Assembly (NCBI GenBank): GCA_963665665.1
Contig: OY762428.1
Span: 2,240,001-2,304,000 of the forward strand
DNA length: 64,000 nucleotides
Direction: 5' to 3'
From: Candidatus Kapaibacterium sp.
Lineage (GTDB): Bacteria > Bacteroidota > Ignavibacteria > Kapaibacteriales > UBA2268
The position numbers and the translations under genes are program-made. The notes beneath the pieces were generated by a model. That model made no database searches, was not told where the DNA came from, and was given only the letters and a program-made list of their open reading frames with translations. How positions within the stretch are numbered: the first letter of the stretch is position 1; each line of letters starts with the position of its first letter. This document shows, piece by piece, positions 4,128 to 64,000 of the stretch.

Positions 4128-5777
4128 ATGATAAAGAAAAATTTCGACATATTGATAATTGTTTTCCTTTCTTCGATTTTTGTACTTTCGGGTAAGGATC
4201 TAAGCCTGAATACTTTTAAAAGTATTGGCGGTGATGCTTTTATGAAGCATGTTTCTTTTCTTGGCTCGGACTTGCTGGAAGGGCGGGGTACCGGCAGGCA
4301 GGGATGCGAACTGGCAGCAAAATACCTGGCACTGGAAATGAGTAATATTGGCCTTGAACCTGCCGCAGCCAATGAAACCTATTACCAATATGTACCGATG
4401 CACGGAAGCAACCCCGGAAGCAACTCAGAGCTAAAGTTATTTTATAAGGGAAATGAAAACGATCTGAAGCTCTGGGATGATTATGTTTTATACCAGACAG
4501 GCGACCAAACCTATATCCCCAATCCTATTGAAATTGTTTTTGCCGGTTATGGTATTGTAGCGCCGGAATTCGATTATAACGATTATCTTTCTGTGGACGT
4601 TGACGGAAAAATTGTAATGATACTTGAAGGTGAACCATATTCCGAAGATCCTGAATATTTTAATGGTACAACTCCTTCAATATACGATTATCCGGAAACC
4701 AAGCAAAGAATTGCCCTTGCCAGGGGAGCAAAGGGAGTGGTGTTTATTCCAAACATCACATCCGCAGGCATTATACACTGGAAAAGCATGGTAAATAGTT
4801 TTTCATTCGAAAATGTAACACTTGCATATTCGGTTTCTTCCCGCCTTGCATTGATAATTAATCCCATAAAAGCGGATTTATTCTTAAAAGGTTCGGGATA
4901 CTCTGTTAACGATATTTACAAAATGCACACAGAAAATCGCCTGAAAAGCTTCCCGCTAAAAACCAGCTTGTCATTCAAAGGTGAATTTAAAAGAAGAGAC
5001 TTTGTGTCCTCGAATATTGTAGGTATGATACAAGGCACCGACAGGAGAATGCGGGACGAATATCTGATACTTAGCGCTCATTATGACCATCTCGGTATCG
5101 GGCCTGCAATACTGAGCGATTCGATTTATAACGGAGTAATGGACAATGCTGTCGGGGTTGCAGCCATACTCGAAATAGCACGTTTTTTCATGACAAACAA
5201 ACCCAGGCGCTCAATAATTTTTATTCTTACTACCGGCGAGGAAAAAGGCCTGCTCGGAGCGCGATATTACACTGACAATCCTATCGTTCCGCTGCACAAA
5301 ACAATAGCCAATATTAATATTGACGGCCTGGCATTCCTTGATAAAATAAAAAGTATTATTGCTATTGGCAGCGAGTATTCCTCGTTTGACGATTTCCTGA
5401 TAAAAGCGGCAGACCTGAACAATGTGAACATAACACAAATCCCCGGCGAATTTGTTCAAACGGAATCTTTCAACTTCTCTGACCAGATGGCCTTTGCCAC
5501 TGCAGGAATACCTTCTATATTAATATACGAGGGGGCAGATTATGAAAATCTCAGCAGGGAAGAAGGCCTGGAAGAACTTATCAACTACAGCAGGAATATT
5601 TACCATACACCGTTCGACGACCTGGATCAATTTATGAATCTTGAATCCACCTTTCAACATATTCGAATTATTGCCACAATTGCATATCTTGTAGCAAATT
5701 CCAATGAAAAACCAAAGTGGATTGATGGTTCACCATTCGTGAATGAAAGACTAAGAACAATTGCCGAAAAGAGATAA
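4128..5777 (+). CDS. M28 family metallopeptidase with PA domain
   Basis: Signal peptide and motifs EGRGTG, VFAGYGI, SAHYDHLG, GVMDNAVG, GEEKGLLG, SDQ and YHTPFDD. Confidence 0.92.
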   Translation: MIKKNFDILIIVFLSSIFVLSGKDLSLNTFKSIGGDAFMKHVSFLGSDLLEGRGTGRQGCELAAKYLALEMSNIGLEPAAANETYYQYVPMHGSNPGSNSELKLFYKGNENDLKLWDDYVLYQTGDQTYIPNPIEIVFAGYGIVAPEFDYNDYLSVDVDGKIVMILEGEPYSEDPEYFNGTTPSIYDYPETKQRIALARGAKGVVFIPNITSAGIIHWKSMVNSFSFENVTLAYSVSSRLALIINPIKADLFLKGSGYSVNDIYKMHTENRLKSFPLKTSLSFKGEFKRRDFVSSNIVGMIQGTDRRMRDEYLILSAHYDHLGIGPAILSDSIYNGVMDNAVGVAAILEIARFFMTNKPRRSIIFILTTGEEKGLLGARYYTDNPIVPLHKTIANINIDGLAFLDKIKSIIAIGSEYSSFDDFLIKAADLNNVNITQIPGEFVQTESFNFSDQMAFATAGIPSILIYEGADYENLSREEGLEELINYSRNIYHTPFDDLDQFMNLESTFQHIRIIATIAYLVANSNEKPKWIDGSPFVNERLRTIAEKR

Positions 5778-5785
5778 GGCCTGCT

Positions 5786-7174
5786 ATGAAAATTATATCG
5801 ACTTTATTCTTTTTCTTACTTTATCTGACAACTGCTAATGCACAGAATGATTTACAATTCAAAAACCTGGTAACAGATATTGATACCCCTTGGGAAATCC
5901 TTTGGGGCCCTGATGATCATATCTGGATGACAGAGCGCTATGGCAGGATCAGCAGGATCAATCCTGAAAATGGCAACCTGATACCACTGCTGACAATTGA
6001 TGATGTATTTGAGGAAGGTGAAAGAGGCTTGCTGGGAATGGCATTGCATCCGGATTTCAGTTCCAACCCATTTGTATATGTTGTATATACATACAAAGGA
6101 GGCCCAACAGGAACCTTCGTAAAAATGGTTAGATATAAATACACAGGCGAAACCCTTATCGAACCGCTTATACTTATAGATGAAATTGAAGGCTTCTGGA
6201 ATCATGACGGTTCGCGCCTGCTGTTCGACGCGGACAACAAACTATACATGACAATGGGTGATGCCAACGTACATATAAATGACTCGCAGGACATTAACTT
6301 TCTACAGGGAAAAGTGCTAAGAATTAATCCCGACGGAACAATACCCGATGATAATCCTTTTCCGGACAGCCCTGTATGGTCCTGGGGCCACAGGAATCCG
6401 CAGGGGCTTGTATACGGTAACGGAATTTTATACAGTTCCGAGCATGGCCCTTCGGACAACGATGAAGTTAATATTATCCACAAAGGCAGAAATTACGGAT
6501 GGCCGAAAGTACGTGGCTATTGCGACAAACCTGAAGAAGAACAATTTTGCATAGATTCTAATGTGGTAGAACCGATTTTATCTCTTTATCCTACTTATAC
6601 ACTGGCTGTTTGTGGAATGGATTATTATAATCACGGCCTTATCCCTGAATGGAACAACTCTTTGCTGCTTACAACCCTGAAAGCTAAAACCCTTGTTTCA
6701 ATAAAACTCAGCGATAACGGTAATGAAGTTGTAAGCCATGAGCATCATTTCGTTAAGGAATTCGGACGTTTAAGAGATATTTGTATATCCCCTGATGGCA
6801 GGGTTTATATTGCAACAAGCAATAGAGACCAGACAAACTCCGGTCAGCAATTGGACGACAGGATCATAGAAATCAGCAAGTCGGTGGGTACAAGTGAAAG
6901 AATAAATGATAAAAACTGCTTCTCGGTAGAGCATATACCCGCTTCTGAAAGCCTGCAAATTCAGACTTGCAGTATTATTCAGGGCAAAGGCATATTGAAT
7001 GTATTTGATACAAGAGGCAGCCTGATCAGTTCAACGGACATTTCATTTGGCCAAAACAATAATTCCCGGATAATAAATTACAATCCAAAACCAGCAACCG
7101 GAGTATATATTGCAGAGTTGATAACCGATAAGGAAATCTACAGGAAATCATTTTTAATAATTAATTTTAACTAA
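5786..7174 (+). CDS. PQQ-dependent glucose/sorbosone dehydrogenase family protein with T9SS-type C-terminal domain
   Basis: Motifs PWEI, GLLGMALHPDF, GKVLRINPDGTIPDDNPF, SWGHRNPQG, EHGP and GRLRD. The C-terminus reads VFDTRG...GVYIAEL. Confidence 0.88.
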   Translation: MKIISTLFFFLLYLTTANAQNDLQFKNLVTDIDTPWEILWGPDDHIWMTERYGRISRINPENGNLIPLLTIDDVFEEGERGLLGMALHPDFSSNPFVYVVYTYKGGPTGTFVKMVRYKYTGETLIEPLILIDEIEGFWNHDGSRLLFDADNKLYMTMGDANVHINDSQDINFLQGKVLRINPDGTIPDDNPFPDSPVWSWGHRNPQGLVYGNGILYSSEHGPSDNDEVNIIHKGRNYGWPKVRGYCDKPEEEQFCIDSNVVEPILSLYPTYTLAVCGMDYYNHGLIPEWNNSLLLTTLKAKTLVSIKLSDNGNEVVSHEHHFVKEFGRLRDICISPDGRVYIATSNRDQTNSGQQLDDRIIEISKSVGTSERINDKNCFSVEHIPASESLQIQTCSIIQGKGILNVFDTRGSLISSTDISFGQNNNSRIINYNPKPATGVYIAELITDKEIYRKSFLIINFN

Positions 7175-8460: not shown

Positions 8461-9159
8461 TCAGCCTATTATTTCAGGATTGAATCTGTCCCGACACCAT
8501 TTTGCGGGATTGTTTAAGATATATTTCGATATGGCCTGGTATGATCTTTCATTTCGGATAATATGGTCGTAATAATTGGGTTGAAAAAAATGATTGTTTT
8601 TATTGTATTTCAGTACTTTCAAATTATTTTTATCAATATAATTATCAATTTCTGAATTGACCGCCGATTTGAAACCGCCAATAAATGTTGATATTGATTT
8701 TGGTTCCCGATAAAATGATGGATTTATAGATTTAGATTTTCCCATTGAATGTAGAGACGCACGGCCGTGCGTCTCTACATCAAATTGGCCGTGCGTCTCT
8801 ACATCAAATCGGCCGTGCGTCTCTACATCAAATTGGCCGTGCGTCTCTACGTGCGAATTATCCATTTTATCAATTTTTGTTGTATCAATTACAACGACGG
8901 CATGTAAATGATTTGGCATAATCACATATCTGTCCAAAAATAATTCATTCCGTATTTCAAATGATTTTAACCATTCGGTTCTGACAATTTGTCCAAATTC
9001 TGACAATAATATTTCACCGTCAAATATTTTCCCCAAATTACAATTCCGGTTTTGGGTAACCAATGTAATAAAATAAAAACCATTGCCAGAATAATCCCAA
9101 CCGAGCATTCTGTGTGATTTTACGCGATATTTATTTCTGTATCTGTGCGTCATGATCAT
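8461..9159 (-). mobile_element. REP-associated tyrosine transposase (RAYT, IS200/Y1 HUH family)
   Basis: Motifs WDYSGNGFYFITLVT, HUH motif VIMPNHLHAVV, SISTFIGGFKS and FQPNYYDHIIRNE...YILNNPAKW. The exact start is uncertain (9153, 9159 or 9207). Confidence 0.9.
8751..8850. repeat. Perfect 28-bp GTAG REP palindrome plus three tandem 24-bp half-copies inside the RAYT ORF
   Basis: GTAGAGACGCACGGCCGTGCGTCTCTAC at 8751-8778, followed by three copies of ATCAAAT(T/C)GGCCGTGCGTCTCTAC. Confidence 0.93.
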
Positions 9160-50323: not shown

Positions 50324-53300
50324 TTATCTTACAATATTTAGTTTTCTTGCATAATCCTTACCGCCGGTTCTGATGATAATCAGGTAGGTTCCGGATGGAA
50401 TTTCGCTGATATCAAATTCAACATTACGGCTGCCTATAAGATTTTCTTTATCATACAAGTTGCCGATAATTCTGCCAGTCATATCAACAAGATCTATCCT
50501 GATATTTAATGGGTTAGTAAATTCCAAAGGTATTGCTACCTTATTGTGTGCCGGGTTCGGAGAAGGCATTCCTATTGAGTATCCTTCGCCTTTGATAATT
50601 TCATTAACAGATCCCGGATCTACTGCAAAGCCTTCAAGAACAACTGATAAAGGAGAATTATCGGCAATGCTGTAAACTTTCAGCTCGCCTTTTCTTAATC
50701 CGGCTTTCGCAGGTTTGAACCTTATGCGGAATCTTTCTGTCTGTCCTATCTGTATTTGTTCGGGGGCAGCCATCATAAACGAGAACTCTGCGTCCCCTCC
50801 CTGTGGATCGTCATCGGTGATAACTGAATTTGTAATATCAATATCAACTTCGCCGGTATTTTCAATTTCTGCAAAGGATGTTTTGGTTTTCCCGACCTCA
50901 AGAGTATCAAATACAAGTTTATTACCTGTTTTCAGGGTCAGTTCCTTCTTTGCCCCGGGGGGTATATAATTAAACAGCAGATTGTTAATATATTGCGAGA
51001 AATACCATACAAGCATTTTGTTTCCACTTTGCGGCACTGCGCAACCGGTCTGTGCTCCGTTTGCTTCTTCTGATAAAGCCGGGAACCACTTTTGCCCCAT
51101 ATTCGAAGAAAGATAAACCTGGCCTCCGCTGCCAATAATTCCTATCATCTCGGATTCAGGCGGGCTGAACAGATTTACAGGACGCAAACCAATATCTGTA
51201 AGGTTGAATTTATTCTTAACCCAGTTGTTGCCACCATCACTTGTTGAAGCAACGAGCAAATCGGAATCGGCATCTGCCGATTCAGTATAAACAGCAATAC
51301 CCTTGTTCTCATCAATGAAGCCGATATAATAAACATAACTGCCGGAATTAATCGTTGATACTCTCCAGTCAGCGCCACGGTTGGTAGTTCTGTAAACACG
51401 GCCCGTTGTTGTACCGAACCAGCCGTAATCTCCCATCCAGTATGTTGACCCGACATAACCGGTTTCCTGTGCTCCTGCAGCAGGGATACCTTCAACTCTT
51501 GCCCAGGTTTTACCGCCGTCAGTTGTTGAGCCTATACCCCAGTTCTCTCCCAACGGGTCACCGAGGAAAATACCATTATTCTCATCAAAGAAATTAATAT
51601 CATTAATAAAGCCGGTTATCGAATTTACAGCTATTGTTGACCATGAAGAACCCGTGTTAACTGTTCTGTATATTCTTGCACTTCCATTGGAAGGCCCGTC
51701 GCCAAGGCAGGCGGTTGTTTCATTGATAATTCCAACTGCATAAACAGGATTGTTTGTAGCTTTGTTTATCGTTGAACCATTAGGGCCGACCTTGAAATAA
51801 ATACCACCGTAAACAGCGCTCTGCCCGGCAGCCCAGACAACATTTGAACCCTGGTATTTGGCTGAATGAAATACAGCATAGAACCAGTCCGGAAGGGCTG
51901 TTACATTATTAAATACATTGTTGCTGCCAATCTGTATCGGAATTCGAACCATCTGGTAGTCTGTATAATTAGTGGCTTCAAATTTAACCAGAAGTTTGGC
52001 ATATCCCTCAAACCATGGATTTATATCAAGCAACCTGAGCCTTATATCAAAATCCTTTGTCTGGTTCATGGAAAGTACACCGATATTGAACTCACTGTTT
52101 TCAATGCTGACATATTTATCCATCGGTGTGATAGTTATCTTCAGGTCAGATACATTAGCAAGGAAGTTATGCGTTTCCATATTAATTATACGGCTTTCAA
52201 AGTTATCAAGGACATCACTTCCTTCAATTGATAATTCTGTTATTTCGCATCCGGGAGCGCTAAGCTGAGGATTTTTATCATTATAAGCAAGGGCTTTATA
52301 TGCATTTATCCTTCCGTAAAGCAAGGGCCTTAGATCAGGATCCGATGTTAAAACATTATCAGATGTTGACCTTATCTGGTGGATGATCTGTTTCGGCGAC
52401 CAATCCGGATGGTAAGCTGCAACAAGGCCACACACGCCTGCCGTTACCGGAGAAGCCATTGAAGTACCGTTCTGACTGGAGTATGTATCCGTTGGATATG
52501 TTGCCCTGATGCTCTGCCCGGGGGTAAAAACTGTCGTATAGTGGCCATAGTTACTGAAACTTGCCATTTTATTGTTTGAAGCAGAAGCACCAACGCAAAG
52601 TACGTTGTCATATTTTGCAGGATATTGATCGTAAGTATCCAGATTTGAACCGTCATTTCCTGCTGCAACTACAACAATTGAACCCATTTCGGTAACTTCG
52701 TTAATTATTTCCTGTGCTGCCGGGCTGAAACCCGGGCCGCCCCAGGAACAGTTAATAATTTTTGCGCCCATTCTTGCAGCATAAAGAATACCTTCGTACC
52801 CACGGTAAATTCCCTGAACGCTCCCGTTGTCTGCACTGCATTTTACAGGCAGCAGCGAACAATTGAATCCTGTTCCGGCAACACCGAGTTCGTTATCGGT
52901 AACTGCTGATGCACATCCGGCAACATGTGTGCCGTGATGGTTCGATGTCAGAGCAGGTTTAGGATTATTGTCTTCCCTGAATGATCCGTTGGCAGCCTGG
53001 TTCTGGTCGATATTTCCCACAAGGTCCCAGCCGTTAACATCATCAATTTTTCCATTATTATCATCATCTTCGCCATTATCGGGAATTTCATTCGGGTTTG
53101 TCCAGATGTTGGCTTCCAGGTCCGGGTGGTCAATCTGTGTTCCGGAATCAACAATACCTATAAGCACATCCTTGCTGCCTTTGCTGATATCCCATGCTTT
53201 TTTCAGTTCAATATTATTAACAGCCCACTGATTATTAAGAAGCGGATCGTTGGGTGTATATTCAAACGGTTGATGAATAAATACGGGAACGGCATATTCA

Positions 53301-53773
53301 ACTTCCGGATTGTCCATCAGTTCCCGGCAGACATCATACGGATCAACAGGCGCTGAATATGTTAATTCATAAATTTTTGTAATCTCGCTGCTTTCGGTAG
53401 AAGGAGCATTCCTGTCCTCGAATGGCGCCCTGATTGATTTGATACCAAGGTCGCTGATAGAGGATTGAAGAGTTGAATTTCTGAATCCTTTGTCACCGGC
53501 ATCGACAAGGAATTTTTGCCTGGTTTTAATATGAATCATTCCCTGAACATAGTGTTCGGGTGATACTTTTGGAATACGATATTTTTTTGCTGCAGAATAG
53601 TAATCAGCAGAAATTTTCTTTCCCGGTACATTAATCGTATATGCGAGTTTGAAATCATCGTCAGTTTGTTTCACCGATTTCGGGTATTTAACCGGAGGAG
53701 CAGCTGCAAAAGCACCTGAACTTGCAACAGCAAACATTATCATCATACATAAAGCGGTCATTTTTCTTATCAT
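50324..53773 (-). CDS. S8 subtilisin-like serine peptidase with BNR/Ycf48-like propeller, Ig-like domain and T9SS-type C-terminal domain
   Basis: Catalytic triad motifs IVDSG, HGTHVAG and GTSMASP, plus TTDGGKTW repeats and PSPNPA...SGTYLI. Confidence 0.93.
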   Translation of the reverse strand: MIRKMTALCMMIMFAVASSGAFAAAPPVKYPKSVKQTDDDFKLAYTINVPGKKISADYYSAAKKYRIPKVSPEHYVQGMIHIKTRQKFLVDAGDKGFRNSTLQSSISDLGIKSIRAPFEDRNAPSTESSEITKIYELTYSAPVDPYDVCRELMDNPEVEYAVPVFIHQPFEYTPNDPLLNNQWAVNNIELKKAWDISKGSKDVLIGIVDSGTQIDHPDLEANIWTNPNEIPDNGEDDDNNGKIDDVNGWDLVGNIDQNQAANGSFREDNNPKPALTSNHHGTHVAGCASAVTDNELGVAGTGFNCSLLPVKCSADNGSVQGIYRGYEGILYAARMGAKIINCSWGGPGFSPAAQEIINEVTEMGSIVVVAAGNDGSNLDTYDQYPAKYDNVLCVGASASNNKMASFSNYGHYTTVFTPGQSIRATYPTDTYSSQNGTSMASPVTAGVCGLVAAYHPDWSPKQIIHQIRSTSDNVLTSDPDLRPLLYGRINAYKALAYNDKNPQLSAPGCEITELSIEGSDVLDNFESRIINMETHNFLANVSDLKITITPMDKYVSIENSEFNIGVLSMNQTKDFDIRLRLLDINPWFEGYAKLLVKFEATNYTDYQMVRIPIQIGSNNVFNNVTALPDWFYAVFHSAKYQGSNVVWAAGQSAVYGGIYFKVGPNGSTINKATNNPVYAVGIINETTACLGDGPSNGSARIYRTVNTGSSWSTIAVNSITGFINDINFFDENNGIFLGDPLGENWGIGSTTDGGKTWARVEGIPAAGAQETGYVGSTYWMGDYGWFGTTTGRVYRTTNRGADWRVSTINSGSYVYYIGFIDENKGIAVYTESADADSDLLVASTSDGGNNWVKNKFNLTDIGLRPVNLFSPPESEMIGIIGSGGQVYLSSNMGQKWFPALSEEANGAQTGCAVPQSGNKMLVWYFSQYINNLLFNYIPPGAKKELTLKTGNKLVFDTLEVGKTKTSFAEIENTGEVDIDITNSVITDDDPQGGDAEFSFMMAAPEQIQIGQTERFRIRFKPAKAGLRKGELKVYSIADNSPLSVVLEGFAVDPGSVNEIIKGEGYSIGMPSPNPAHNKVAIPLEFTNPLNIRIDLVDMTGRIIGNLYDKENLIGSRNVEFDISEIPSGTYLIIIRTGGKDYARKLNIVR

Positions 53774-56967: not shown

Positions 56968-57261
56968 ATGCAGCGTCCGGAATTACTCCCGGAAGAAGAA
57001 ATTAATTCTCATCTGATTTCCCGCCCGCTCTGGAAACATGAGGATAACCTTATATACAGGGACTTCGCCCTTGCCAATTTCACAGCCTGCATGGGCCTGG
57101 CAAATTCCGTAGCCATCCTTGCCGAAAAAATGGATCATCACCCGGAAATCAGGCTTTATGCCTGGAATAAAATCCGTTTTACCCTGATGACCCACGACAA
57201 AGGCGGTCTTACATCTCTTGATTTCCAACTGGCAAAGCAGATTGACGAGCTTGGTTTTTGA
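56968..57261 (+). CDS. Pterin-4-alpha-carbinolamine dehydratase
   Basis: Motifs AEKMDHHPEI and THDKGGLTSLD. Confidence 0.92.
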   Translation: MQRPELLPEEEINSHLISRPLWKHEDNLIYRDFALANFTACMGLANSVAILAEKMDHHPEIRLYAWNKIRFTLMTHDKGGLTSLDFQLAKQIDELGF

Positions 57262-57449
57262 TTCTTTGAAAACAAAGTTAAAAATGCTCTTTCGGATATC
57301 TTATCCGAAAGGAGAACAGGATTGGGAAATCCTCTCCCTATTGTACGTAGGGACAGGGATTCACCGACGAGCTATGTAGGTTAAAATCTTTATCGTTCTT
57401 TAAAAATTTATAGCAGATCCTTATGACGATAAACCATAAGCTACAATGC

Positions 57450-57540
57450 TGTCACTCTGAGCGAAGCGAAGAGTCCATTCTTCTGCAATGTTTGATTGAA
57501 AATATGGATTCTTCAGTCGATGCGCTCTTTCAGAATGACA
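57450..57540. repeat. Bipartite palindromic intergenic repeat (same family as 38052)
   Basis: TGTCACTCTGAGCGAAGCGAAGAGTC ... GGATTCTTCAGTCGATGCGCTCTTTCAGAATGACA. Confidence 0.85.
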
Positions 57541-57660
57541 CTTTCGGATTTTTTCTCAAAAAATTGCTATAAATTTTCAATGCTGAGTAGGTACAAAAAA
57601 TAGAAAAGTTTTTTTATATAATAATTCAGATATTTCCATTTTAATATTTTATTCAATTGA

Positions 57661-58953
<1,293 letters not shown>

Positions 58954-58983
58954 AATATATTTGTAAATATACAATTATACCTT

Positions 58984-59018
58984 TATCCCCTCTTTTTTTT
59001 AAGGAGGGGAATTTTTTA
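58984..59018. terminator. Hairpin between convergent eno and cysQ
   Basis: TCCCCTC-loop-GAGGGGA followed by a T tract. Confidence 0.6.
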
Positions 59019-59042
59019 TTCAATTTTCCGATATAAATAACA

Positions 59043-59813
59043 TTAGAAATTATTCTCAACATCAAATGAACTAACCAGGAAACCCGGGTTCAGCAGTGAT
59101 TCTTTGTTGTAGATAAAACGTCTGCCACCGTTCTCAACCATACCGCCAGCTGCTTCCACAACACCCTGGCCTGCAGCAGTGTCCCATTCCATGGTAGGCC
59201 CTCCCCGGAAATACAGATGGGCTTTGCCCTCGGCCACCATACAGAATTTCAGTGAGCTGCCCCTGGAAATTGACTCAACAACATTAAATTTCGCAAGGAA
59301 TTCCTTTTCTGCTTCGCCGGCATGGGAACGTGACTGAACGGCGATTATTCCTTCGCCTGTGTTCTGATTAACTTTTATCTCTTCCTTAACTCCTTTGGTT
59401 ATTTTAAAAGCACCTTCTCCTTTTGTTCCAATATAAATATCATCCAATACTGGCGCTGATACTATACCAAATACCGGGTAACCGTCTTCTATCAGGGCAA
59501 TATTCACAGTAAATTCGCCGTTACGTTTTATAAATTCCTTTGTTCCGTCCAGAGGGTCAACCAGAAAGAAGCGTCTCCAATTCTTACGGTTTTCGTAGGG
59601 AATTTCCTTCTCTTCCTCTGAAATAATTGGAATATCCGGGTAGAATTCTCTTAAAGATTCAGTAATAACCTTATTTGAAGCTTTGTCGGCTTTTGTAAGC
59701 GGAGAGTTATCCGATTTCATCTCAACTCCGAAATCATCAGTATGGTAAATATCCATAATAGCTTTTCCGGCTTCAATAACTATCTCAATCATTTTATCAT
59801 TGTCAATCAGCAT
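59043..59813 (-). CDS. cysQ: 3'(2'),5'-bisphosphate nucleotidase
   Basis: Motifs KSDNSPLTKAD, SEE, LVDPLDGTKEFIKRNGEFTVNIAL, GSSLKFC and EWDTAAG. Confidence 0.95.
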   Translation of the reverse strand: MLIDNDKMIEIVIEAGKAIMDIYHTDDFGVEMKSDNSPLTKADKASNKVITESLREFYPDIPIISEEEKEIPYENRKNWRRFFLVDPLDGTKEFIKRNGEFTVNIALIEDGYPVFGIVSAPVLDDIYIGTKGEGAFKITKGVKEEIKVNQNTGEGIIAVQSRSHAGEAEKEFLAKFNVVESISRGSSLKFCMVAEGKAHLYFRGGPTMEWDTAAGQGVVEAAGGMVENGGRRFIYNKESLLNPGFLVSSFDVENNF

Positions 59814-60932: not shown

Positions 60933-61658
60933 TTATTCAGCCTGGTGAACGTCGCCGCTGCCTTTTATATCAACATAAACATTCTGCGGTTTTCCGGTAT
61001 AATAAACATCTCCGCTACCGTAGATTTTAACGCTCAGGTCTTCCTTAACATTCAGCCTGCAATTACCTGAACCATATATTTCTATATCAGATATTTTCGT
61101 TGTAAAGTCGGTTAATTTAAAATCACCTGACCCTTTAATTTCAAATTTTGTTTTTTCGGCTTTGCCCTTAACTGATATATCACCTGAGCCAAGAATTTCG
61201 CCTTTCAATTTCTCAGATTCAATCTCCATAGCAATATCACCTGACCCTTTGATAACCAGGGCAATAAGATCTGTTTTTATTGGCGTTTCTCCTACAATAT
61301 CACCGGATCCCTTGATCATAATGCCTTCATAATCAGGAGATGTAACGTAAACATCAAATCTTGAAGGGCAAATTGAACCAACGGAAGAAATAATAAGTGT
61401 ACTACCGGAAACCTCTGTTGTTACCTGTTCGATAATATTATCATCGGTAACAACTTTTACTTTAGTTTCATTTCCCTGGCTTACAAAAATATTTGAAGAA
61501 CCTTTAAGGACAATTTTATTAAATTGGTTCACATCCCTGTATTCTTCAACAATTTTCTCGGAACCCTGAACACAGTTAAGGCAGGTATTGAAACATGAAG
61601 TCATTGTGAATGAAAGAATTAAAGCTGATATTATAATAACTGGTTTGAAAATTTTCAT
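60933..61658 (-). CDS. DUF2807 (head GIN) lipoprotein
   Basis: Lipobox TMTSC and repeated I(K/Y)GSGD beta-helix motifs. Confidence 0.9.
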   Translation of the reverse strand: MKIFKPVIIISALILSFTMTSCFNTCLNCVQGSEKIVEEYRDVNQFNKIVLKGSSNIFVSQGNETKVKVVTDDNIIEQVTTEVSGSTLIISSVGSICPSRFDVYVTSPDYEGIMIKGSGDIVGETPIKTDLIALVIKGSGDIAMEIESEKLKGEILGSGDISVKGKAEKTKFEIKGSGDFKLTDFTTKISDIEIYGSGNCRLNVKEDLSVKIYGSGDVYYTGKPQNVYVDIKGSGDVHQAE

Positions 61659-61775
61659 ATAAAAACTCCGATTTTTGATATTATCCATCATTTTCATTAC
61701 GCAAAATATCTTATAAAGTTTCGTAATATTTTAATAAGTTGAAATATTAAAATTATAGCAGGAATTGAATAAGTA

Positions 61776-63338
61776 ATGACAAATAATGTTATCAATCTGA
61801 AGAAAAAGATAAAAGATTTTAAAACCGAAGGAATCAAATTTTCCGTATCAGGCAGGGAAATTCTGCCATATTATGATATAATTGATTTTCTAAAAATATA
61901 TTATCCGTTTATTAATTTGAAACAGATAGAAAGTTCATTTGGCAGTACATATATACCCTCTGATTTGTATGGCGGAAGGAAGTATAACCCTGAAAAATCA
62001 TTTACTGACGGGCATATTGCAAAATTGGCTGAGAATAATATTAACTTATCTTTAACACTTACCAATCATTACTTTTCTCCGGATATTTACGAAAAAAGTA
62101 AATATTTACTTGAGAAATACCATAAAGCCGGCAATTCAGTAATATGTGTAAATGATGAACTTGCAAAACAGATAAGGATTGATTTCCCGAAATATCAGCT
62201 CAGGGCAAGTATTATTAAAAATATAAATACTTTGAAAAAAGTTGAGGAAAATCTGGAAATATATGATTTTATTGTGATACCCATGGATAAAAATGACGAT
62301 GATGAATTTTTGAAAAGCCTGCCGGAAAAGAAAAAAATTATGCTTTTTGCCAATGCATCATGCGCTTATTCATGCCCGACAAGAACCTGCTATAAAGGAT
62401 TTTCGGAGGTAAATAGAGGTGGCGATCAGGTAAATCTTTGCTCAAGAAATAAAGTTGACAGATTGAACATGGGGCTTGTATTTTTTGATGTGCTGAAATT
62501 CAGGGATATGGGATTTGATTATTTTAAACTTGTTCCTTTGAAACAATATAAAACTAATGATGTAATAAAATTTTACAGCGAAAAAAGACTAAAACAAAAA
62601 ATTAATTTTAATGAAAAAAACATGTTTTATTTGTGTTCATTCCCAAAATCCGGGAGGACATGGCTGCGCTTTATACTGGCAAATTATATTAATCTATATT
62701 TTAAAACCGACGAAAAAATTAACCTTAACAATATGTTTGAATTCATTCCTAATAATATTTACGGAGGGCAAAAAGGTTTTGCCAGATTCAGATATTATAA
62801 CAGGCCGGAAATACCACTAATTTTATCTACCCATGAGAAATACAATCCGAATATTTTCAGTGAAAAAAGAATAATATTTTTAAAAAGGAACCCTTTGGAT
62901 ACGATAGTATCATACTATTTTCATATTAAAAATGATCCGGGATATCGGGGAAATATAAGCGAATTTATAAGAGATAAAAAATTTGGTATCAGGTATCTGA
63001 AAAGATACTATAAATTATGGGAAAAAAATCTGAATAATGAAAGTCTTATTATAAGCTATGAGGATATGATAGATGATATTGAATCTGTTATCATCAATGT
63101 TTTGAATTTTATTAATATTCAGGTTGATAATGAAATATTGAAGGAATCAATTAACAATTCTGATATTAATAATATGAGAAATTCAGAAAATCTGGTTAAA
63201 ATCCCTGACATGAATGAAAGTGCCGTCAGGGTAAGAAAAGGAAAGACAAATAATTACATGAATTATTTGTCTGAAGAGGATATTAAATATTGTAATGATA
63301 TTTTAGATGTAAAATTACATAAACTATTGGAAAAATAG
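61776..63338 (+). CDS. Fusion of an N-terminal U32-like Cys-cluster domain and a C-terminal PAPS-dependent sulfotransferase
   Basis: The C-half has 5'-PSB YLCSFPKSGRTWL, 3'-PB KRNPLDTIVSYY and RVRKGK. The N-half has YGGR, NLSLTLTN, NSVICVND, SIIK, DKNDDDEFL and ANASCAYSCPTRTCY...LC. The sulfotransferase call is strong and the U32-like call is moderate. Confidence 0.75.
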   Translation: MTNNVINLKKKIKDFKTEGIKFSVSGREILPYYDIIDFLKIYYPFINLKQIESSFGSTYIPSDLYGGRKYNPEKSFTDGHIAKLAENNINLSLTLTNHYFSPDIYEKSKYLLEKYHKAGNSVICVNDELAKQIRIDFPKYQLRASIIKNINTLKKVEENLEIYDFIVIPMDKNDDDEFLKSLPEKKKIMLFANASCAYSCPTRTCYKGFSEVNRGGDQVNLCSRNKVDRLNMGLVFFDVLKFRDMGFDYFKLVPLKQYKTNDVIKFYSEKRLKQKINFNEKNMFYLCSFPKSGRTWLRFILANYINLYFKTDEKINLNNMFEFIPNNIYGGQKGFARFRYYNRPEIPLILSTHEKYNPNIFSEKRIIFLKRNPLDTIVSYYFHIKNDPGYRGNISEFIRDKKFGIRYLKRYYKLWEKNLNNESLIISYEDMIDDIESVIINVLNFINIQVDNEILKESINNSDINNMRNSENLVKIPDMNESAVRVRKGKTNNYMNYLSEEDIKYCNDILDVKLHKLLEK

Positions 63339-63350
63339 TTATTATGATAT

Positions 63351-63476
63351 CTAAGAAGTATGATAAGTATCGCTTTCGCCATCAGTTTCAGGTGGTGAAG
63401 AAATATTTCCATCAGTATCGCTTGAATCAAAATCAATTACCTGTGGCTTTTTCCATTCTTTTTTATTGTCTTTCAT
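63351..63476 (-). CDS. Lasso peptide precursor (paeninodin-like), not in the ORF track
   Basis: Manual translation gives MKDNKKEWKKPQVIDFDSSDTD|GNISSPPETDGESDTYHTS*. It has a WxxP leader motif, Thr(-2), Gly1, Glu8 and a C-terminal Ser, and lies 70 bp downstream of a cyclase-like gene. Confidence 0.85.
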   Translation of the reverse strand: MKDNKKEWKKPQVIDFDSSDTDGNISSPPETDGESDTYHTS

Positions 63477-63546
63477 AATCAATTCTTTTTTTTTAAATAT
63501 ATATCAACTTAATCTGGATATAATATACTTAATTGTACAGTTAAAT

Positions 63547-63999
63547 TCAAATTTCTATTTGTTCAATAAATTTAATAGTAGCTATAGTATGCAGAATCAG
63601 CTTTGTTGTTTTTGAAAACAGATCCTGAGTATATTTCTCTGATTTTATATTCTCAAGAGTTTCTGATATTTTATTCTTATCGAATCGAATAATTCCATCA
63701 TTGCTATATGTATTAATAACTTTTTCAGTCCTGTTCATATCCAGTAAAACGCGATATGAAAGATCCTTTGCCTGCTTGCCGCGTTTGGTATTGCTAAGAA
63801 CTTTTTCGGGCAATTTTCCTTTCATAGCGCTTCTGATGAGATAACGTCCGATACCTTCGTGTTTGAATAATCCAGCAGGTATTTGTTTTGTAAATTCGCT
63901 AACGCGCCTATCGTTTGTGGCATCCCTGGTTTCAATTTTATTTATTAAATTATAATCAATATTACTATTAGATCCTGTATTGGATATATGTTTTTCAAG
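63547..63999 (-). CDS. Lasso peptide isopeptide-bond-forming cyclase / asparagine synthetase-like protein, C-terminal part (continues beyond the window)
   Basis: The frame is open to the window edge: ...IETRDATNDRRVSEFTKQIPAGLFKHEGIGRYLIRSAMKGKLPEKVLSNTKRGKQAKD. Confidence 0.82.
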   Translation of the reverse strand, partial: LEKHISNTGSNSNIDYNLINKIETRDATNDRRVSEFTKQIPAGLFKHEGIGRYLIRSAMKGKLPEKVLSNTKRGKQAKDLSYRVLLDMNRTEKVINTYSNDGIIRFDKNKISETLENIKSEKYTQDLFSKTTKLILHTIATIKFIEQIEI

Positions 64000-64000
64000 T

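Follow-up and report, generated by a model that had tools for sequence, protein, structure and literature searches.

Among described lasso peptides, the closest to the one considered here are those of the paeninodin type. Passages of PMC13381572 report that discrete lasso RREs (recognition elements for RiPPs, peptides that the ribosome makes and that are modified after translation) recognise a leader motif of the form [Y/W]xxPx[L/V/I/F/A], that its Trp is nearly invariant in paeninodin-like precursors (W-15 in PbaA), and that paeninodins are restricted to Bacillota. Kinases modify the C-terminal Ser of linear precursors, and the tailoring of pseudomycoidin and Bsf acts on the leader-bearing precursor (passages of PMC8498205 and PMC10368454). 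Lasso clusters with sulfotransferase genes were pointed out in 2014 and 2016, and the genes have stayed uncharacterised, as passages of PMC4289311 and PMC8498205 have it. Here, we describe a 64,000-nucleotide stretch of Candidatus Kapaibacterium sp. DNA (contig OY762428.1; the whole stretch is called the window), in which a small open reading frame (ORF) at 63351..63476 on the minus strand is probably the structural gene (A) for a class II lasso peptide of paeninodin-like kind. Because this precursor gene is flanked on one side by a lasso cyclase gene and on the other by the gene of a fusion of a U32-like domain and a sulfotransferase, the peptide may carry a sulfate group. The precursor gene and its parts are as follows.

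63351..63476, minus strand, precursor gene (A), 41 codons plus TAG, from the ORF list, its translation and a model built from relatives only
63411..63476, minus strand, predicted leader, residues 1-22, MKDNKKEWKKPQVIDFDSSDTD, with W(-15), P(-12), V(-10) and T(-2), up to a predicted cleavage site
63354..63410, minus strand, predicted core, residues 23-41, GNISSPPETDGESDTYHTS, with Gly1, Glu8, Tyr16-His17 and Ser19, for which ring and threading are predicted

The locus was compared with 80 related loci (L001-L080), which were drawn from one-genome-per-species contigs using an alignment of 31 fusion homologues. Twenty-one of them were annotated, by crude gene calls around the fusion or its N-terminal domain together with Pfam and BLASTP searches. 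With the paeninodin type (PadeA/PbaA) the window peptide shares WxxPx(L/V) with Trp(-15), Thr(-2) and a C-terminal Ser, and the window shares the order of cyclase gene, then precursor gene; the relatives share split B1/B2 genes and HprK-like kinase genes (11 of the 21 annotated loci). The features compared are taken from passages of PMC13381572, PMC8498205 and PMC5067487. The locus differs from the paeninodin type in that its peptide stays under the family model NF033524, in its predicted 8-membered Gly1-Glu8 ring and in its U32-like/sulfotransferase partner, and no kinase is visible in the window. Whereas paeninodins are described as restricted to Bacillota in PMC13381572, the WxxP/C-terminal-Ser family is found here in records of other phyla. 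Likeness to pseudomycoidin/Bsf is seen in the relatives L001, L009 and L012, which hold a kinase gene and an NTP_transf_5-type nucleotidyltransferase gene beside lasso genes. Bsf differs in having YxxPxL, Ile(-2), phosphorylation at Ser3 and an Asp end, and neither sulfation nor a U32-like partner is reported in the passages of the pseudomycoidin and Bsf accounts (PMC8498205, PMC10368454).

The precursor ORF starts with ATG at 63476..63474 and stops with TAG at 63353..63351, and its 41-residue product is MKDNKKEWKKPQVIDFDSSDTDGNISSPPETDGESDTYHTS. An earlier note on this DNA had translated the ORF by hand and read it as a lasso precursor, without giving a strand; the computed translation is identical and lies on the minus strand. 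The sole alternative start is an in-frame TTG two codons upstream (63482). Since word-based and family-library searches with the peptide were empty, relatives were reached via the neighbouring fusion gene. A tBLASTn search started from the window peptide, together with inspection of small ORFs, brought up homologous peptides adjoining fusion or cyclase genes, which is the outcome that the earlier note had proposed to look for, and a motif scan gave 29 homologous ORFs from 22 of the 32 loci L001-L032. A hidden Markov model (HMM) was trained on these 29 small ORFs, with the window peptide excluded, and was run against the 1793 stop-to-stop segments of at least 20 residues in all six frames of the 64-kb window. 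It gave one match, the precursor ORF (E 5.7e-7; runner-up E 2.8). Because the relatives-only HMM picks this ORF alone in the window, the ORF is, judged by its sequence relatives, a conserved gene and not a chance frame. Over the 35093 segments of all 80 loci, the HMM gave 32 matches in the same 22 loci, 29 of them the training sequences, and no match at E <= 0.01 in the 48 loci without lasso context (L033-L080), which hold a relative of the N-terminal domain only or of the sulfotransferase only.

The residues that a lasso precursor would be expected to keep are conserved in an alignment (A3) of the window peptide and its 29 relatives (n=30), which are 35-60 residues long. The WxxPx(V/L) leader motif claimed for the window peptide is present as W8-K-K-P11-Q-V13, and its Trp and Pro are invariant (30/30), with Ile, Leu, Val, Met or Phe following in the family. 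The proposed Thr at -2 is T21, followed by D22 and G23. A Thr stands 13 residues past the Trp in 25/30 members, including the window peptide, and at W+14 in four other relatives (L012, L013, L014 and L031); this register places the Trp at -15. The core usually begins two residues past the Thr, with a conserved Gly close by. If cut after D22, the window core is 19 residues long, begins with Gly and has Glu at position 8, all as the earlier note had it. An acidic residue stands at core position 8 or 9 in the A3 relatives, with Glu8 in the window peptide, L005, L006, L007 and L032, and Glu9 in L008, L015, L019 and L020. The note had offered Asp10 as a less usual ring acceptor; this would require a 10-membered ring, and since only Glu8 falls within the known ring sizes of 7-9, Glu8 is the likely acceptor. 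The aromatic tail with a terminal Ser is likewise a family trait: Ser is C-terminal in 30/30 peptides and Tyr is among the last six residues in 25/30 (counted by eye), with endings that include YHTS, YHPS, YRPS, YGPS and YS. The predicted core has the eight hydroxyl residues counted previously (4 Ser, 3 Thr and 1 Tyr). TDG and SDT do each occur twice in the peptide, as had been pointed out, but shuffling did not bear out the internal micro-duplication drawn from them. Two or more repeated tripeptides arise at P 0.035 when the whole peptide is shuffled and at P 0.05 when residues 15-41 are shuffled, one repeat copy lies across the boundary of leader and core, and relatives do not show the repeat.

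The family extends well beyond the aligned loci. When the A3 profile was searched against 1.84 billion representative proteins, 319 matches were obtained at E <= 1e-3, and 143 of the best 150 are at most 100 residues long, 142 of these with WxxPx[VILFMAT]. Among the WxxP representatives, 122/142 combine Thr(-2) with an acidic residue (Asp or Glu) at core position 7-9, in agreement with the Gly1/Glu8 assignment for the window core, whose only acidic residue at these positions is Glu8. The 143 small representatives include 109 that end in Ser, 9 that end in Thr and 89 with Tyr among the last six residues; all these counts are partly selected for by the searching profile, which lessens their weight for the lasso reading. 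One large match (P0121) is a repeat protein and a false positive. Another (P0124, 92 residues) consists of two whole leader-core units in tandem, with two WxxP motifs and two matched stretches; either two precursors are fused in it, or gene calling has read through from one to the next. The NCBIfam model NF033524, named "paeninodin family lasso peptide", matches 9 of the 30 aligned peptides (best 1e-5), and the window peptide does not match it even at E <= 10. On the likeness to paeninodin's tail that the earlier note saw, this comparison bears only indirectly. The window peptide is therefore called paeninodin-like and is not filed as a member of that family. A search by alignment found 19 relatives in NCBI, ENA and JGI data, and none of them bears a functional name. 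In several phyla the relatives take up the equivalent gene position; they keep the conserved residues on diverged DNA, and their records carry the labels Bacteroidota, Desulfobacterota, Acidobacteriota, Planctomycetota (Scalindua), Campylobacterota and Pseudomonadota. Sequence comparison thus adds the window peptide, as a new member, to a large family that is for the most part unnamed.

The genes on either side of the precursor gene, which complete the visible cluster, are as follows.

63477..63546, minus strand, A+T-rich spacer of 70 nt from the cyclase stop to the precursor ATG, with an A-run just 5' of the ATG
63547..64000, minus strand, 3' end of the lasso cyclase (C) gene, last 150 codons plus TGA, asparagine-synthase-type, cut by the window end
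61776..63338, plus strand, tailoring fusion of 520 residues, convergent with the precursor gene, with 12 nt between the stops
61776..62615, plus strand, U32-like TIM-barrel domain of the fusion, about residues 1-280, with invariant C196, C200, C205 and C222
62628..63323, plus strand, 3'-phosphoadenosine 5'-phosphosulfate (PAPS) sulfotransferase domain of the fusion, cytosolic type, residues 285-516, Pfam Sulfotransfer_1 4e-26

The precursor ORF begins 70 nt downstream of the cyclase stop on the same strand. The cyclase fragment matches Pfam Asn_synthase (1.3e-7), and its best NCBIfam match is lass_lactam_cya (1.5e-6), far under the full-length cutoff, as is expected for a fragment. It is collinear with residues 460-587 of the 592-residue L009 cyclase (E 8e-17) and with residues 508-602 of the L016 cyclase. 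Together, the leader motif, Thr(-2), Gly1/Glu8, the terminal Ser and the adjoining cyclase gene support the earlier reading of the ORF as a lasso precursor.

The convergent fusion has 141 homologues at E <= 1e-3 among 8000 candidates scored; its closest are P0001 (56% identity) and P0002 (52%), and among the 120 homologues listed, 77 are of two-domain length and 7 are lone N-terminal halves of ~290 residues. A model of the full-length protein has a predicted local distance difference test score (pLDDT) of 86. The C-terminal half scores 92.4 bits for Sulfotransfer_1 against a curated cutoff of 22, and a fold search with the whole fusion returned sulfotransferases only, with SULT1D1/SULT1E1 at E about 1e-11. 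The stretches FPKSGRTW, S-T-H, RNPLDTIVSYY and RKGKT align with YPKSGTTW, K-T-H, RNAKDVAVSFY and RKGIT of SULT1E1, and K291, H353, R371 and S379 are invariant among 31 aligned sequences. We take these motifs to be the PAPS-binding loops (5'-phosphosulfate-binding, 5'-PSB, and 3'-phosphate-binding, 3'-PB) and the catalytic base. In its motifs and its modelled fold, the sulfotransferase domain looks catalytically competent. It shares Sulfotransfer_1, the 5'-PSB loop, the catalytic His and the 3'-PB motifs with SULT1E1/SULT1D1 at about 20% identity, and differs from them in being fused to a 280-residue N-terminal domain. A weak match (E 3e-4) links it to StaL of glycopeptide antibiotic biosynthesis, which sulfates a peptide phenol of the antibiotic.

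Since the whole-fusion fold search returned sulfotransferases only, the N-terminal domain was folded alone. Its model is a TIM barrel (pLDDT 90, predicted TM score 0.87), and its top fold match in the PDB is 5d88, the U32 peptidase Mk0906 (E 6e-8, TM 0.60/0.67). After it come generic barrels, at E >= 1.5e-4 and about 2500-fold behind 5d88. A language-model look-up returned PrtC family and Peptidase_U32 clusters (score 0.95), whereas a Pfam search at E <= 10 gave noise and no family, and the domain's profile found only noise among PDB sequences (E 1.3). With the U32 family, the domain would share the TIM-barrel fold nearest 5d88 and four invariant Cys; it differs in having no Peptidase_U32 match and another Cys spacing. 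Because this spacing departs from the common pattern, the modelled domain is called U32-like and is not filed as a U32 member. Passages of PMC6747719 state that most U32 proteins bind a 4Fe-4S cluster via four conserved Cys, and passages of the same paper and of PMC10990095 tie UbiU/UbiV, RlhA and TrhP to a hydroxylation of aromatic rings that does not need O2 and takes its oxygen from prephenate. The fusion hosts include records named Scalindua, Desulfobacteraceae, Geobacter, Pelobacter and Mariprofundus. Many of these hosts presumably belong to mostly anaerobic or microaerophilic groups. No U32 protein is known to have a peptide substrate or to be joined to a sulfotransferase.

The association of the fusion with lasso genes recurs among the annotated loci. 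At least one lasso-type gene (Asn_synthase, PqqD, Transglut_core3 or HprK-like) is present in 20 of the 21, L021 having none. An Asn_synthase-type gene occurs in 14, PqqD (the RRE, B1) in 9, Transglut_core3 (the B2 protease) in 4, the HprK-like kinase in 11, an additional standalone sulfotransferase of ~290 residues in 14 and an ABC exporter in 6. The order of cyclase, then precursor, is that of the window in L005, L006, L007, L008 and L019, and the precursor gene abuts the fusion gene in L012 and L015, where the two converge just like those of the window, and also in L016 and L032. Further genes found repeatedly nearby are GT41+TPR (L004-L008), GT8, NTP_transf_5 (L001, L009 and L012), radical SAM/SPASM and carbamoyltransferase genes. 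In Bacteroidales relatives, three GT8 and five sulfotransferase (ST) genes stand beside a standalone N-terminal domain, and the order in L019 is a standalone U32-like gene, then GT8, ST, GT8, ST3, ST1 and GT8.

Several of these loci hold arrangements of their own. In L020 (Bacteroidales), five tandem precursor genes at 5200-6810 on the plus strand have near-identical leaders and different cores; a sixth lies on the other strand (8700-8864, minus), and there are two cyclase genes. In L015, two minus-strand features lie upstream of the precursor arranged most like the window's, a precursor-like frame without a start codon (L015:11907-12032) and an Asn_synthase fragment of only 132 residues (L015:12344-12739); together they resemble a duplicate cluster in decay next to an intact one. 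In L059, L062, L063 and L064 of Syntrophaceae/Smithella (e.g., L064:9974-15051), a standalone U32-like gene is followed by GNAT, TauE, CysD and CysN/APS-kinase (adenosine 5'-phosphosulfate kinase) genes, TauE being a sulfite exporter family and the last two sulfate activation genes. TauE, CysD and CysN/APS-kinase genes adjoin the standalone domain in these four loci only, which are closely related and count as one observation on a possible link of the U32-like domain with PAPS synthesis. The neighbours of the standalone domain in Shewanella, Litorilituus and Xanthomonadales loci are unrelated. Phage tail collar proteins (PF07484; small, often tandem) and DUF6916 proteins are neighbours in the Desulfobacterota and Acidobacteriota loci L004-L008, L010 and L013 (e.g., L006:4556-6272).

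By analogy with studied systems (passages of PMC5067487, PMC8498205, PMC10368454 and PMC13381572), maturation of the window peptide could proceed as follows. A discrete RRE (B1) would bind W(-15)xxP(-12)xV(-10) and present the peptide to B2, which would cut after Thr(-2)-Asp(-1). The cyclase would activate the Glu8 side chain with ATP and join it to the Gly1 amine, giving an 8-residue macrolactam through which the 11-residue acidic tail TDGESDTYHTS would thread, with Tyr16 and His17 as likely plug residues. To judge from its neighbouring position, the convergent 520-residue enzyme may tailor the peptide. Its sulfotransferase domain would be expected to transfer sulfate to a hydroxyl, because all PAPS-binding and catalytic motifs are kept. 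The preferred acceptor would be the conserved near-C-terminal Tyr (Tyr16) or a hydroxyl first installed by the U32-like, putative Fe-S domain, and alternative acceptors would be Ser or Thr, or a sugar on the terminal Ser. Tyr is preferred because the sulfotransferase belongs to the phenol/alcohol type, because aromatic rings are the targets of U32 enzymes, and because many hosts bear names of anaerobic or microaerophilic groups. A precedent for Tyr as the preferred acceptor is RaxX, a ribosomal peptide whose Tyr is sulfated by RaxST, a dedicated PAPS sulfotransferase encoded nearby; RaxX is linear and not a lasso, and RaxST belongs to another sulfotransferase family. If the cluster past 64000 resembles those of the relatives, an HprK-like kinase would phosphorylate the C-terminal Ser of the linear precursor. 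Once mature, the product would be an exported lasso peptide, small and highly anionic. Sulfation by the fusion with a Tyr acceptor is plausible and is the least secure step, as it is drawn from the neighbouring genes only. Further still, the fusion could be a two-step, O2-independent tailoring enzyme, in which the U32-like domain hydroxylates Tyr16 or His17 with prephenate and the sulfotransferase sulfates the new or the phenolic hydroxyl; we consider this rather unlikely.

A number of observations weigh against the reading of the ORF as a lasso precursor with a tailoring partner. The window ends at 64000, so that only the last 150 cyclase codons are visible, and B1, B2, kinase and transporter genes are not. 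The window peptide has no match in Pfam and NCBIfam, and a word-based search with its 41 residues in a 5.8-billion-protein set gave none. For the U32-like half, neither the window domain nor two standalone homologues match Pfam PF01136 (Peptidase_U32) at E <= 10, and the Cys spacing is Cx3Cx4Cx16C, against the usual CX6CX15CX3/4C of U32 proteins given in a passage of PMC6747719. L015, whose arrangement is the most similar, has a fragmentary cyclase, so such copies can decay. The three GT8 and five sulfotransferase genes of the Bacteroidales relatives fit a sulfated glycan at least as well. It is accordingly possible, although on balance unlikely, that the precursor is genuine and that the fusion sulfates something else, either a sugar or phosphosugar built by kinase, nucleotidyltransferase and glycosyltransferase on the C-terminal Ser or something unrelated, for instance a polysaccharide. 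The related loci hold many glycosyltransferases and several sulfotransferases (L019; GT41+TPR; NTP_transf_5), pseudomycoidin bears hexoses on its phosphorylated terminal Ser (a passage of PMC8498205), and paeninodin-type clusters often lie within capsular polysaccharide loci (a passage of PMC13381572). Against a sugar acceptor, the genes of fusion and precursor abut in the window, L012, L015, L016 and L032, the sulfotransferase is of the cytosolic small-molecule/phenol type with its weak match to StaL, and the visible part of the window cluster is without a glycosyltransferase.

The decay in L015 also bears on whether the window ORF is an inactive relic, a once-functional precursor copy beside a decaying or incomplete cluster that yields no product. 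The L015 precursor lies downstream of the 132-residue cyclase fragment, near the second frame that lacks a start codon; the window displays three cluster genes only; and the GC content of the cluster region, 27-30% and far under that of the flanking housekeeping genes, is as expected of acquired and possibly unmaintained DNA. Yet the precursor ORF is intact, with ATG and all conserved positions, the 150 visible cyclase codons form an open frame that is collinear with full-length cyclases as far as the C-terminus, and the 520-residue fusion is intact with all invariant residues present, so that a relic is improbable. More improbable still is a linear, unthreaded, leader-dependent phosphorylated or sulfated RiPP of the same kind as linear polyphosphorylated peptides (LPPs). 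The precursors of LPPs have the RRE motif and a set of kinase, NTP-transferase and transporter in common with paeninodin-type clusters and co-localise with them, but LPPs have leaders with YxxP, their processing is signal-peptidase-like and they have no cyclase (passages of PMC13381572), whereas the window peptide has WxxP, Thr(-2) and Glu8 in the lasso register and a cyclase gene directly upstream. That the ORF is a chance, non-coding frame in an A+T-rich spacer could be argued from its mere 41 codons, from an overlapping antisense ORF of 44 codons (63344..63478, plus strand) and from its lack of a database name or family-library match. The HMM value of E 5.7e-7 against 1793 segments and the relatives in the same gene position across several phyla make this explanation hardly credible.

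Around the lasso precursor gene, a consensus scan gave a promoter-like match at 63550..63522, and the 10 promoter-like sites in 63000..64000, compared with 6.9 +/- 2.5 in shuffles, give no functional evidence. No terminator was found by a scan around the precursor gene. The cluster genes visible in the window are the cyclase end, the precursor and the fusion, and the other cluster edge is a DUF2807 gene (60933..61697). GC content is 27-30% over the lasso genes (61500..64000) and 42-45% in the enolase region (57000..59500); because the former is so far below the latter, the lasso cluster may be horizontally acquired DNA. A gene for a CysQ-type 3'(2'),5'-bisphosphate nucleotidase (59043..59813, minus strand; TIGR01331 3.6e-90) lies 2 kb from the fusion. 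Enzymes of this type remove 3'-phosphoadenosine 5'-phosphate (PAP), the by-product of PAPS sulfotransferases. It was rejected as a cluster member, as none lies near any of the 80 related loci and two unrelated genes stand in between, and its proximity to the fusion is probably coincidental. A 1149-residue subtilase (50324..53773, minus strand) carries the Por_Secre_tail sorting domain of the type IX secretion system, which we take to point to a host in Bacteroidota and allied phyla. A host of this type fits the low GC and the fact that no Shine-Dalgarno-like sequence precedes the precursor ATG.

Lasso peptides are stable scaffolds whose tailoring chemistry is being catalogued. A 2026 review of their modifications covers citrulline, aromatic cross-links, chlorination, prenylation, glycosylation, phosphorylation and acylation, and a term search of its text finds "sulfat" in a reference title only and no word beginning with "sulfo" (PMC13352647). 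No sulfated lasso peptide was found among the titles listed by a search of the open-access literature from 2017 on or in passages of PMC13352647 and PMC13381572, and no paper in the open-access literature searched has "lasso peptide" together with "U32". The window offers a compact pair for testing sulfation chemistry, a 19-residue core and one 520-residue enzyme, and in several phyla the same fusion is met again together with lasso genes. The N-terminal half of the fusion, which has no name, is modelled with the U32 fold, and studied U32 members are linked to oxygen-independent hydroxylation. The WxxP/C-terminal-Ser precursors themselves are common outside Bacillota, in contrast to the restriction of paeninodins stated in a passage of PMC13381572. 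If the fusion does not act on the peptide, the window adds one more member to a large precursor family. The main interest is its recurrent, unstudied U32-like/sulfotransferase partner. If the fusion does act on the peptide, the anionic modification that it adds would be new, and so, possibly, would the enzyme-substrate class; the two-step reading, if true, would give, to our knowledge, the first lasso peptide to be sulfated and the first case of a U32-family hydroxylase with a peptide substrate.

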